Assembly (NCBI GenBank): GCA_000004985.1
Contig: GG738860.1
Origin: Naegleria gruberi
Taxonomy: Eukaryota
DNA: 64,000 bases
Reading direction: 5' to 3' (one strand)
Shown here: positions 43,297 through 45,741 of the stretch, in pieces
Layout of the letters: each line of letters begins with the position of its first letter
How positions within the stretch are numbered: the stretch's first letter is position 1
Notes under the pieces: generated by a model
Told to the model about the DNA's origin: nothing
Database searches by the model: none
The model's input: only the letters and a program-made list of their open reading frames with translations
Made by a program: the position numbers and the translations under genes

Positions 43297-45741
43297 ATGG
43301 CCAGAACCAAGCAAACAGCGAGAAAATCGACGGGTGGCAAAGCTCCAAGAAAACAATTGGCTTACAAAGCTAGAAAAGCAAACAGACCTTTCCCTTCCCG
43401 TTCGTTGGCAGGTCCTTTTTCTGATGAGGAAAAAGCAATTTTTGTGAATGGTTTGAAAAGAGCCTTCGATGGAAGTGAAGAATCATCAAAATTTGATGTA
43501 AATACCTATGAAGGAGCTTCACAATTAGTCAAATTTTGGATTTTCCAAGATCAAAAAAGAAGAAAATTGAAACCAATGGTAGAGGAAGCTAAATGGAATG
43601 GCAGCTTTGAATTGCTTCACAATCTTCCTATGGATATCAAGTATGAAATTATTGATTTTATTCCAACCTTTTCCTTGAGAGATTTTTACAAAATCAAGTT
43701 AGACGAATTCACTGAACAGATGAAGCTGGCACAAGTTGAAGATATTTCTAAAATTGTATGCAAAGGACTGAATTTGTTTGAAACCTTTACAAAGAGATCT
43801 TTTCAAAATTTGTACTATTCAGATCCTCTCTATAGAAACTATTACAAGAAGAGACTAATTAACAGAGAATATGCATTAAGAATGAAACAAAGGATATTGA
43901 AGTTGGATGAGTTTGATATTACAGATATTGATTATGATATTGGTTCTGTAAAGAAAGACAAACTATTGCACTTCTTTTCGTTGGTTAAGGAGATGAATGA
44001 AATTGACACTGTTGACTTTAATGATGTGGTCATTCACAGAAATATTGAAAAAATCAAGTCATTGGTAAATGGAACCACCACAAAAAGAAATGAAGATGAT
44101 TACGAGTCACCTTGTGAAGAACCAATGGATGATACTGATTCAATTAGTAATGAGCCTAATGTAACTGTATCATTTGATGAAATGGAGCTACTTTCTGAGG
44201 AAGAAATGAAAAAGTTAGAATCAAAATCTATTGCCATACTGCAGGAATCAGAAAGAGGATATTATAATACTCGTAATTACAATAAGTTTAACAAGCAAGA
44301 TAGTAAATCTTTTAGAAAGCAAGCGATGTATTCGTATGCTATACCATTGGAACTAATAGGAACTGGTGCTATTCCACAAGAACAAAATTTTACTCGTGCC
44401 TTTTCTCACGAAGAGATTATGGAAAGGCTTAAGGAGTTTATTGGAATTAATTCATCCATTAAGAAACTTTCTGTCAGAGGTCTAGATGTCGGCTTTACAA
44501 ACACTGCCATGGACATCTGTAAAGGAATAACAGATCTTTCAATACTTTTATGTGAGTACGTGGATTATTTTGAGTGCTTTAAAGAAGTCCTACCAAATCT
44601 CAACAAGCTGACTATTAATGGAGTTTCTTCTCATTACTCAATTAGTTTTATGGAAAGCTTTATGATTGAGGAATATATTCAACCTAACTGTGTTGTTGAT
44701 TTAGGGTTTGCTACAGGCACTGACACATATTTCTCGGATTTTTTAAATCGTTATGTTGAAGATCAAAACGGTAACAAGACTCCATTGAAAATTACCTCAA
44801 AACTACTCTCAACTGAAAACGTAACCGAATATGCCGACTTTTTATTGAGGTTTATAGAAGGAGTATCTTTCGGCCAATTGTTTTCTGATTTTGATATGAA
44901 AAAGAAATTGGTAGATTACTTGGTAATTGAAGTTGGCATTCCAATTGAATGGCTTACGCTTACCACAAGTGGAGATACTATAATTACAGAATACTTAGCT
45001 TATCTTTCAAATGTTTATCAAAATGGGGCAATTAATTGTCCAAGCTCTATTATGTTACGAGCAGGCTTGATTCCAAATAATATAGCCAATGAATTGGTTT
45101 TTTCTAAATATGAATGGGATGTTGTTGAGTTATGTTTAGATTATTTAAAAAAGAGAGATGATATTGATGACTTTGTTTTGACCCTTAGAAATTTGCTCGT
45201 TTTCTATGTGTGTGATAGAAGTGATTCTCCACTCTTTGAACTATATTGTTACATTAAGAAGAATATTCCAGAAAGTCAATTCAAAGAAATTTTAAAGCCT
45301 ATCAAATGTATCATTCCAGAAGGCTACAAAGAAAAGAACAATGAAACCTTGCATACAGTTTCTATTCCCATCATTTGCTTCCCATTCTCAAATTACCAAT
45401 TCGCTAAAGCTATCGTGGATGATATGACAGACGAAGATTTGAAATTTGTTAATGAGCTTGGTGACTCATGTCTGCACATTTATTCTAGACATGACCATAG
45501 TATTTGGAGTAGAATAGTTGAAAGAGTACCAGAGGTAGTCAAACTCAGCAACCCTGAGGGAGTAACACCTTTACATATTCATACTACCAATATCCAGTCA
45601 TACATATTTGTATTAGACTTGTTGACAAGATTTGGTGCTGACCCAAATGCAAAAGATATTGAAGGAAGAAAAGCTATTGGTGAATTTTTTATATTTGAGA
45701 ATGGTATTTTGAAAGTTAACAACAGATCAATGGAATATTAG
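43297..45741 (+). CDS. Histone-H3-tail-bearing F-box-like / LRR-like / ankyrin-repeat protein (814 aa)
   Basis: One uninterrupted ORF. Residues 1-22 '[22 protein letters not shown]' are identical to the canonical histone H3 N-terminus, followed by 'YKARKAN' (compare 'TKAARKS'). An F-box-like segment follows ('[29 protein letters not shown]'), then LRR-like middle sequence. The C-terminus has ankyrin repeats ('[40 protein letters not shown]'). Confidence 0.6.
   Translation: [814 protein letters not shown]

Follow-up and report, generated by a model that had tools for sequence, protein, structure and literature searches.

Full-length histone H3 tail on an LRR–ankyrin protein family of Naegleria and Willaertia: a probable endogenous tail mimic

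We analysed a 64,000-nucleotide stretch of Naegleria gruberi DNA (GenBank assembly GCA_000004985.1, contig GG738860.1; hereafter the window, with positions counted from its first letter). A single open reading frame (ORF) on the plus strand (43297–45741) encodes 814 codons followed by a TAG stop, rather than the 816 or about 800 residues given in an earlier reading made from the letters only (hereafter the sequence-only reading). The other two frames contain 51 and 98 stops across the same interval. The translated protein starts with Met and residues A1–A21 of histone H3, identical to canonical H3 (22/22 including Met), and continues into a large body with leucine-rich repeats (LRR) and ankyrin repeats (ANK). 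Taking both parts jointly, we consider it fairly probable that the gene is real, has a single exon and encodes 814 aa, and that its product is a full-length mimic of the H3 tail, endogenous and under selection, on an LRR–ankyrin scaffold, with a function that we infer from its features. The gene contains the following elements.

43255–43257 (+): in-frame TGA stop, 42 nt 5' of the start, with no ATG in between
43297–43362 (+): start codon and H3 tail A1–A21 (tblastn E=3e-11; family profile; no replacements, pN=0)
43363–43389 (+): further part of the H3 tail in eroded form, YKARKANRP where H3 has TKAARKSAP (K23–P30 region; tblastn, relatives)
43390–43497 (+): weakly conserved linker, variable in the alignment
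43525–43557 (+): conserved block with the family motif LVKxWIxQDQK (alignment; W81 and I82 nearly invariant)
43612–43680 (+): F-box-helix-1-like motif LLKxLPxDLKYEIIxFIPTYS, aa 106–128, the most conserved block of the N-domain
43843–43899 (+): second conserved N-domain block, HKMRLINKEYAxRMKxKIL (alignment)
44077–44304 (+): acidic low-complexity segment, weakly conserved, aa about 261–336 (structure model, alignment)
44404–44856 (+): LRR domain, aa about 370–520, with about 5–6 beta/alpha units (profile, structure model)
44869–45366 (+): conserved helical region with Y(L/I)xYLxNxYQNG, aa about 525–690 (alignment, structure model)
44923–45188 (+): 266 nt spliced out as an 'intron' in the public model XP_002678751, read here as coding
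45379–45696 (+): ankyrin-repeat module, aa about 695–800, with the motif NELGDSCLH
45739–45741 (+): TAG stop codon (translation)

The ATG at 43297 is the earliest in-frame ATG after the TGA at 43255–43257 and is therefore the first possible start of the exon; position −3 is A, position +4 is G, and an A-rich leader precedes it. Two assembly gaps are present in the window (42453–42943, 491 N; 33395–33444, 50 N). The nearer one ends 353 bp upstream of the ATG and interrupts the peptidyl-tRNA hydrolase 2 (PTH2) gene, which lies just upstream on the minus strand. There are zero Ns between the H3-like tail and the stop codon, so that tail and body lie on unbroken sequence.

The tail-less body (aa 30–814) identifies the locus as NAEGRDRAFT_48038 (XP_002678751.1, UniProt D2VAT9), annotated only as a 'predicted protein'. 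The XP_002678751 model is 550 aa long, has a MARTKQ start identical to that of the window ORF, matches aa 1–542 and then has an 8-aa end. Its frame-shifting 'intron' costs it 272 codons (44923–45188 and 45189–45741), and the part with the helical region and ankyrin repeats, a third of the protein, is absent. The 44923–45188 stretch is in frame with the ORF, stop-free and coding-like in codon-position composition; together with the next 183 codons it aligns to homologues up to the C-terminus, including the YLxYLxNxYQNG and NExGDxxLH motifs, and homologues align across all 814 aa. This shows that the 'intron' is false and that the 814-aa reading is right.

We compared the window with full-length H3 by tblastn, using a canonical H3 sequence (N. 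gruberi's own H3 is assumed to have the canonical tail). Only H3 residues 1–31 were matched, at 43297–43389 (25/31 identical, gapless, E=3e-11); every other H3 match in the 64 kb had E>6, i.e. no histone-fold exon was found in the window. The 22/22 identity is far above chance. Pfam Histone had no match in the window protein or in scans of family members, and in place of a histone fold and alphaN helix the AlphaFold 2 (AF2) model and the homologues show LRR and ANK. A canonical H3 tail, and with it a histone-like sequence, is thus present on a non-histone protein. The sequence-only reading had claimed such a continuous fusion of a perfect 22-residue tail to a large protein that lacks the histone fold, and both points are borne out. 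Its interpretation of YKARKAN as a degraded K27 context also holds, because these residues correspond to an eroded K23–S28 region that is intact in some relatives (ATKAARKS in P0105/P0106; compare ASKSARN in P0107 and P0111). Positions 1–30 of the family profile match H3 residues 1–30 of many PDB entries (E~7e-6), and aa 1–41 are predicted to be disordered (pLDDT <50; AF2 with the family alignment). The tail-coding segment had further been described as GC-rich, consistent with capture from an H3 gene. Its GC content (0.485) is what its amino acids would give under the codon usage of the gene (0.462 +/- 0.031, with 30% of simulations reaching 0.485), and therefore provides no evidence of capture. 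Codons of the NCG type are clustered at 43318–43335 (GCG for A7, TCG for S10 and ACG for T11), where the Willaertia magna copies use A/T/C-ending codons.

An exhaustive phmmer search with the tail-less body as query, against 1.84 billion representatives, recovered about 20 clusters of true relatives, the other matches being generic ankyrin proteins. These relatives belong to N. gruberi (at least 8 genes), N. fowleri, N. lovaniensis and W. magna (at least 8 genes), together with two JGI metagenome contigs and one SRA-derived fragment, and all are annotated as 'predicted', 'hypothetical' or 'uncharacterized'. Apart from environmental sequences, the body family is so far confined to two genera of heterolobosean amoebae, Naegleria and Willaertia. 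A search of this kind for the same fusion had been proposed from the outset, and it succeeded: many family members begin with the H3 tail, and their N-termini form a graded series.

W. magna 012076: longest tail, 28–29 residues of H3
W. magna 012021 and 012027: long tail ending ...QLASKSARN
W. magna 006649: tail-bearing N-terminus, the next step of the series
W. magna 008928: tail-bearing N-terminus, a further step of the series
N. gruberi 72320: tail-bearing N-terminus of the series
N. fowleri member: shorter H3-like N-terminus, late in the series
W. magna 002024: shorter H3-like N-terminus, late in the series
Several other members: MARTK... or MARTR... only
A few members: N-terminus without resemblance to H3

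The most widely retained element across the family is MART[KR]. The arrangement of tail plus body also recurs in independent assemblies, namely at five W. magna loci, in N. fowleri (NCBI, ENA and Logan) and in N. gruberi paralogues. A metagenome scan with the N-domain alignment gave 348 pattern matches, 0 of them confirmed, and a scan with the shared tail codons gave no match; a word-indexed profile search returned just 8 proteins, apparently swamped by low-complexity candidates. A literature search with gene identifiers and several phrasings yielded no description of this gene, of its paralogues or of any non-histone family that bears a long H3 tail.

Alternative gene calls exist for N. fowleri (P0104 / L002 3001–3105) and W. 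magna (P0105 / L005 1501–1563), in which an upstream in-frame ATG adds 20–34 residues before MARTKQ; if real, these extensions would bury the tail end. The NCBI models of the N. fowleri and W. magna members start at MARTKQ, and in the N. gruberi window such a 5' extension is ruled out by the upstream stop. On W. magna contig JBEGDK010000065.1 (about 248–402 kb; L001, L005 and L006), the tail-bearing genes ABK040_012021, 012027 and 012076 lie within ~150 kb of each other, which points to local duplication. ABK040_012021 and 012027 differ at 1/63 tail nucleotides, and an RCC1-repeat gene is located directly upstream of each.

We then compared the DNA of five W. magna paralogues, the N. fowleri gene and the window gene. 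Five copies, including the window gene, encode a perfect A1–A21, and across these five tails 12/21 codons vary synonymously with 0 replacements. Synonymous divergence of the tail (pS) is 0.51–0.64 when the window gene is set against the W. magna copies with a perfect tail, 0.26–0.45 among diverged W. magna paralogues and 0.06 in the recent duplicate pair 012021/012027, while replacement divergence (pN) is 0 in all three comparisons. When substitutions were placed at random, ten were all synonymous in 0/200,000 trials (<5e-6) and seven at a rate of 3.5e-5. In the body, the window protein shares 0.19–0.22 of residues with members from W. magna, and identity is 0.50–0.60 among diverged W. magna paralogues; at the body rate of the latter, the probability of 21/21 identical residues is 1e-5 to 1e-7. 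These results indicate that the tail is retained under strong purifying selection, and the idea of an H3-tail mimic, already raised in the sequence-only reading, is strengthened by this conservation.

In a neighbour-joining tree for which the tail was excluded and the body columns alone were used, long tails occur in both major clades, i.e. on either side of the deepest family split. One clade unites the W. magna expansion with Ngru_72320 and Nlov_009005 (bootstrap 96/100), and another the window gene with Ngru_52520 (94/100); the tail of this sister paralogue is eroded (MARTRGSIRNN...APRKLY). In the most economical reading, the long tail is probably ancestral, older than the Naegleria–Willaertia split, and was kept in some copies and decayed in others. 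It is a family-wide trait, and not a recent or unique capture. Furthermore, four of the five W. magna genes carry a phase-0 GT...AG intron (about 46–94 nt) exactly between the ATG and the Ala1 codon (L001 3001–3060; L006 about 1500–1557; L007 about 1503–1550; L005 about 1561–1658), which is absent from W. magna L004 and from the Naegleria genes. This shared intron ties the tail to the gene structure of the family.

On whole proteins, Pfam gives weak ankyrin signals only, with no F-box or LRR in any of the 22 members. An AlphaFold model based on the 22-sequence alignment has a mean pLDDT of 72.5 and a pTM of 0.67, and Foldseek agrees weakly with it; a single-sequence model (mean pLDDT 35.8) was discarded. 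AF2 predicts an alternation of strands and helices across aa about 390–504 and a helical remainder, and the acidic segment is mostly predicted to be disordered (pLDDT <50 at aa 261–296 and 317–336). Searched against PDB sequences, a profile of aa 340–520 matches the LRRs of TIR1 (E=2.2e-8), SKP2 (9e-4 to 3e-3) and designed LRR proteins (1e-3), with non-significant matches to FBXL17, FBXL5 and COI1 (E 0.22–1.2); Pfam LRR models have no match on single sequences of the family. These profile matches indicate that the LRR is real and of the type found in F-box/LRR proteins of SKP1–cullin–F-box (SCF) ligases. The ankyrin repeats are recognized by both sequence profile and fold: the family profile matches designed ankyrin repeat proteins (DARPins) with E=7e-10, and a viral fold search (BFVD) gave generic ankyrin matches only (best E=7e-4). 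The LRR-like middle and the C-terminal ankyrin repeats of the sequence-only reading are therefore both recovered. For the helical region, no informative relative was found among PDB sequences (the best are ferritin and designed helical repeats, E>=0.0017, not meaningful), and Pfam scans of the family proteins contain no NB-ARC, TIR or death-fold signalling domain.

The F-box-like motif, from which an SCF adaptor had been proposed, fares less well. No F-box chain was matched by the N-domain profile among PDB sequences, and in profile-profile comparison (hhalign) with F-box references the alignment is in register but covers 18 columns, i.e. helix 1 only, with a probability of 11.6%. Between the F-box-like block and the HKMRLINKEYAxRMKxKIL block, in which K184, R186, I188, E191 and M196 are invariant in alignment A1, members carry a variable insert of 14–73 aa. 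After its removal the hhalign probability is 28% and the alignment is not longer (P=0.0026–0.0006 over tests), and sub-threshold Pfam matches to PRANC, F-box and F-box-like appear in 3, 2 and 1 of 16 spliced constructs. A 'split F-box' was also tried and rejected, as removal of the insert did not align the HKMRLINKEY block with F-box helix 3. The F-box assignment is thus unproven, with no match above threshold, and the SCF adaptor is a hypothesis to which only the FBXL-type LRRs lend plausibility.

What such a protein might do follows from the properties of the tail. Met-Ala N-termini lose their initiator Met, which exposes A1. Residues 1–21 of H3 hold the docking and substrate motifs for the modifiers of K4, K9, K14 and K18 and for the T3 and S10 kinases; the same stretch is the target of PHD, chromo, WD40 and BIR reader domains and of H3 importins. 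Removal of Met before Ala in the window protein would expose A1-R2-T3-K4..., which should be indistinguishable from H3 for the tail machinery of the cell, i.e. (i) K4/K9/K27 methyltransferases, (ii) K9/K14/K18 acetyltransferases, (iii) T3/S10 kinases, (iv) PHD/chromo/WD40/BIR-type readers and (v) H3-type importins. The multi-partner constraint that freezes the real H3 tail may also freeze the mimic. The tail would then be recognized, and probably modified, like that of H3, and could bring the scaffold of LRR and ANK modules together with the readers and writers of the tail, in either direction. Since MART[KR] is retained more widely than any other element, the minimal partners may be readers that bind the very N-terminus. 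In the most speculative and weakest step, the scaffold might act as an SCF-like substrate receptor, such that ubiquitylation would hit either the readers or writers bound to the tail or, at chromatin, the partners of the LRR/ANK modules.

Several observations weigh against this proposal. Members P0009, P0016, P0027 and P0030 have lost most of the tail, so the body is evidently able to function without it. With an AG 14 nt before the start codon at 43297, a spliced-on 5' exon is conceivable from sequence alone. Exact-product look-ups (the 550-aa model, the 814-aa ORF and the paralogues P0110, P0089 and P0109) found no record and no independent N. gruberi assembly. As the F-box is unproven, the link to SCF rests mainly on the type of the LRR. 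In addition, the basic N-terminus could be a plain nuclear localization signal (NLS), and the apparent selection on the tail could be borrowed from host H3 genes.

Under the NLS alternative, which we consider rather unlikely, the family would have borrowed the tail solely for nuclear import or basic targeting, and it would engage no chromatin readers or writers. The H3 N-terminal tail is itself an importin-recognized NLS, as seen in the import of yeast and human H3. The tail of the window protein is rich in Lys and Arg and predicted to be disordered, and members with eroded tails keep basic N-termini (e.g. MARIKRGFSFRKSKRK and MARTKATKRRY). However, an NLS tolerates many substitutions, whereas the tail shows 21/21 identity and zero replacements at pS up to 0.64, and the frozen positions include the non-basic T3, Q5, T6, S10, T11, G12, G13, A15, P16, Q19 and L20. 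This points to the multi-partner constraint typical of H3. Also, the most widely kept MART[KR] is a reader motif (PMC8166343) and not the K14/K18/K23 region that importins contact.

A second alternative concerns immunity. Here the H3 tail would be a bait in an integrated-decoy system of surveillance or a sink, carried by a fast-evolving and possibly SCF-linked body that captures pathogen effectors acting on host H3 tails (Legionella SET-domain methyltransferases, giant-virus chromatin factors) or the cell's own readers and writers and routes them to ubiquitylation; this is improbable in our view. The strictly immune-type version, with an invariant H3 bait on a fast-evolving LRR/ankyrin sensor that senses or soaks up bacterial or giant-virus effectors, appears very unlikely. 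Modules of the LRR and ANK kinds are characteristic of sensors in innate immunity, and the body evolves rapidly (19–30% identity between paralogues) while the bait is frozen. The W. magna family has expanded by local duplication, with three copies within ~150 kb. Moreover, one report describes W. magna as eliminating L. pneumophila (PMC6892926), and another describes methylation of H3K14 by the Legionella effectors RomA/LegAS4 (bioRxiv 10.64898/2026.05.29.728679). All of this is circumstantial, however: the Pfam scans revealed none of the signalling domains named above, and the same pattern fits an endogenous chromatin role.

Alternatively, the tails could be held H3-like by recurrent gene conversion or repeated capture from host H3 genes, an explanation to which we give little credence. 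H3 genes are multi-copy and protein-identical in the tail segment, and all five perfect copies agree in their codons for R2, Q5, T6, R8, K9, K14, P16, K18 and Q19; these invariant codons are, however, the AT-rich preferred ones expected from codon bias. Paralogues within the W. magna genome differ at 4–7 synonymous sites in 21 codons, and the ATG–Ala1 intron common to four W. magna copies would tend to be lost if the donor of the conversion had no intron, as is typical of histone genes. The likeness to H3 fades gradually beyond residue 21 without sharp tract borders, erosion of the tails is graded in a manner that fits descent, and the window tail contains three rare-looking NCG codons (GCG, TCG and ACG). 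Finally, an artefact (assembly mis-join, gene-model error or split H3 gene), as the 491-N gap 353 bp upstream and the wrong 3' end of the public gene model might suggest, is effectively refuted by the continuous frame without Ns from tail to stop, the lack of histone-fold sequence in the 64 kb and the recurrence of the arrangement at five W. magna loci, in three N. fowleri sources and in N. gruberi paralogues.

We next place the proposed full-length H3-tail mimic among known systems. Among the closest analogues are the H3 N-terminal mimicry proteins (H3TMs; VRK1, BCL11A/B, SALL, FOG, PCLAF/PAF15 and others; Chen et al. 2021, PMC8166343), which, like the window protein, are non-histone proteins with an A1-R2-T3-K4-like N-terminus. 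After Met removal this N-terminus, M-[small]-R-x-K in the human mimics, is bound by PHD and Tudor readers and by NuRD (PMC8166343). The M-A-R-T-K start of the window protein conforms to the H3TM rule of that study (initiator Met, small residue, R-x-K and a true N-terminus), and Met removal is predicted; the protein also weakly matches the Pfam PAF 'histone-like domain' (E=0.01). However, H3TMs share a motif of 4–5 residues (M-Z-R-x-K), whereas the window protein has 21 consecutive H3 residues that cover K4, K9/S10, K14 and K18, and here the full tail defines a whole gene family. Other short mimics likewise use a histone-like linear sequence to engage readers, writers or erasers: viral examples are influenza NS1 (ARSK), SARS-CoV-2 ORF8 (ARKS) and the hepatitis delta virus antigen, and cellular ones the automethylation motifs of G9a/GLP and SETDB1, NOP16, the Sgo1 N-terminus and the SNAG domain. 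These mimics have 4–8 residues and one modification site, and many are viral; by contrast, the Naegleria/Willaertia tail is cellular, vertically inherited, complete and truly N-terminal. Histone mimicry is therefore an established concept whose examples found in the literature are all short motifs, and a full-length, family-wide and selected tail appears to be new.

Compared with histone H3 and its variants (including CenH3), the window protein is identical in the first 21 residues and similar up to residue about 30, but it has 814 rather than about 136 aa, lacks the alphaN helix and histone fold and cannot be a nucleosome component. Its LRR is of the same sequence type as that of the FBXL proteins (SKP2, TIR1, COI1, FBXL5 and FBXL17), among which KDM2A/B (FBXL11/10) are chromatin-linked examples, and its LPxD(L/I)xxEIIxF motif sits N-terminal to the LRR, where the F-box of an FBXL protein would be. 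In contrast to FBXL proteins, it has no F-box above threshold and carries an extra N-domain block, the helical region, ankyrin repeats and the H3 tail. Ankyrin plus PRANC proteins of poxviruses and giant viruses also combine ankyrin repeats with a degenerate F-box-like element (weak PRANC matches, E=0.042–0.1); in the window protein, however, the order is reversed (F-box-like element N-terminal, ANK C-terminal) and an LRR is present. No evidence of a viral origin was found, the viral structure matches being generic ankyrin.

The remainder of the window contains several further genes and features. Directly downstream, and convergent with the H3-tail gene, 45835–49467 (−) encodes a 1210-aa EML-like double beta-propeller protein. 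The ORF at 50809–52470 (+), in which the C-terminal part of a protein-kinase domain is combined with WD40 repeats, probably represents a single exon of a longer gene with introns. Upstream, a 459-aa ORF at 38160–39539 (+) has a UVSSA N-terminal domain (E=5e-21) and is a heterolobosean homologue of the transcription-coupled-repair scaffold UVSSA. A tRNA-Ser gene (anticodon GCT) is located at 32897–32977 (+), about 420 bp before the 50-N gap. Imperfect 27–36-nt tandem repeats rich in GGTGGTGGA / CCTCC occur at 12380–12637 and probably encode a Gly- or Pro-rich repetitive segment.

In brief, this family places the entire modifiable H3 tail (K4, K9/S10, K14 and K18, with K23/K27 in some members) on a non-nucleosomal scaffold, and keeps it letter-perfect while the body has diverged to about 20% identity. 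That the constraint on the tail persists off the nucleosome implies that it stems from soluble readers, writers or importins and not from nucleosome structure. H3K9me3/H3K27me3 heterochromatin of N. gruberi has been mapped with commercial antibodies to canonical H3 peptides (bioRxiv 10.1101/2025.03.17.643675), and antibodies against modifications of the H3 tail may, in Naegleria and Willaertia, also detect these proteins (about 90–120 kDa). If the decoy or bait explanation were true, the family would be the first example of a module for protein targeting outside chromatin that consists of an entire histone tail. More generally, the family offers a testable handle on the recruitment, titration and degradation of tail readers and writers in a deep-branching eukaryote.

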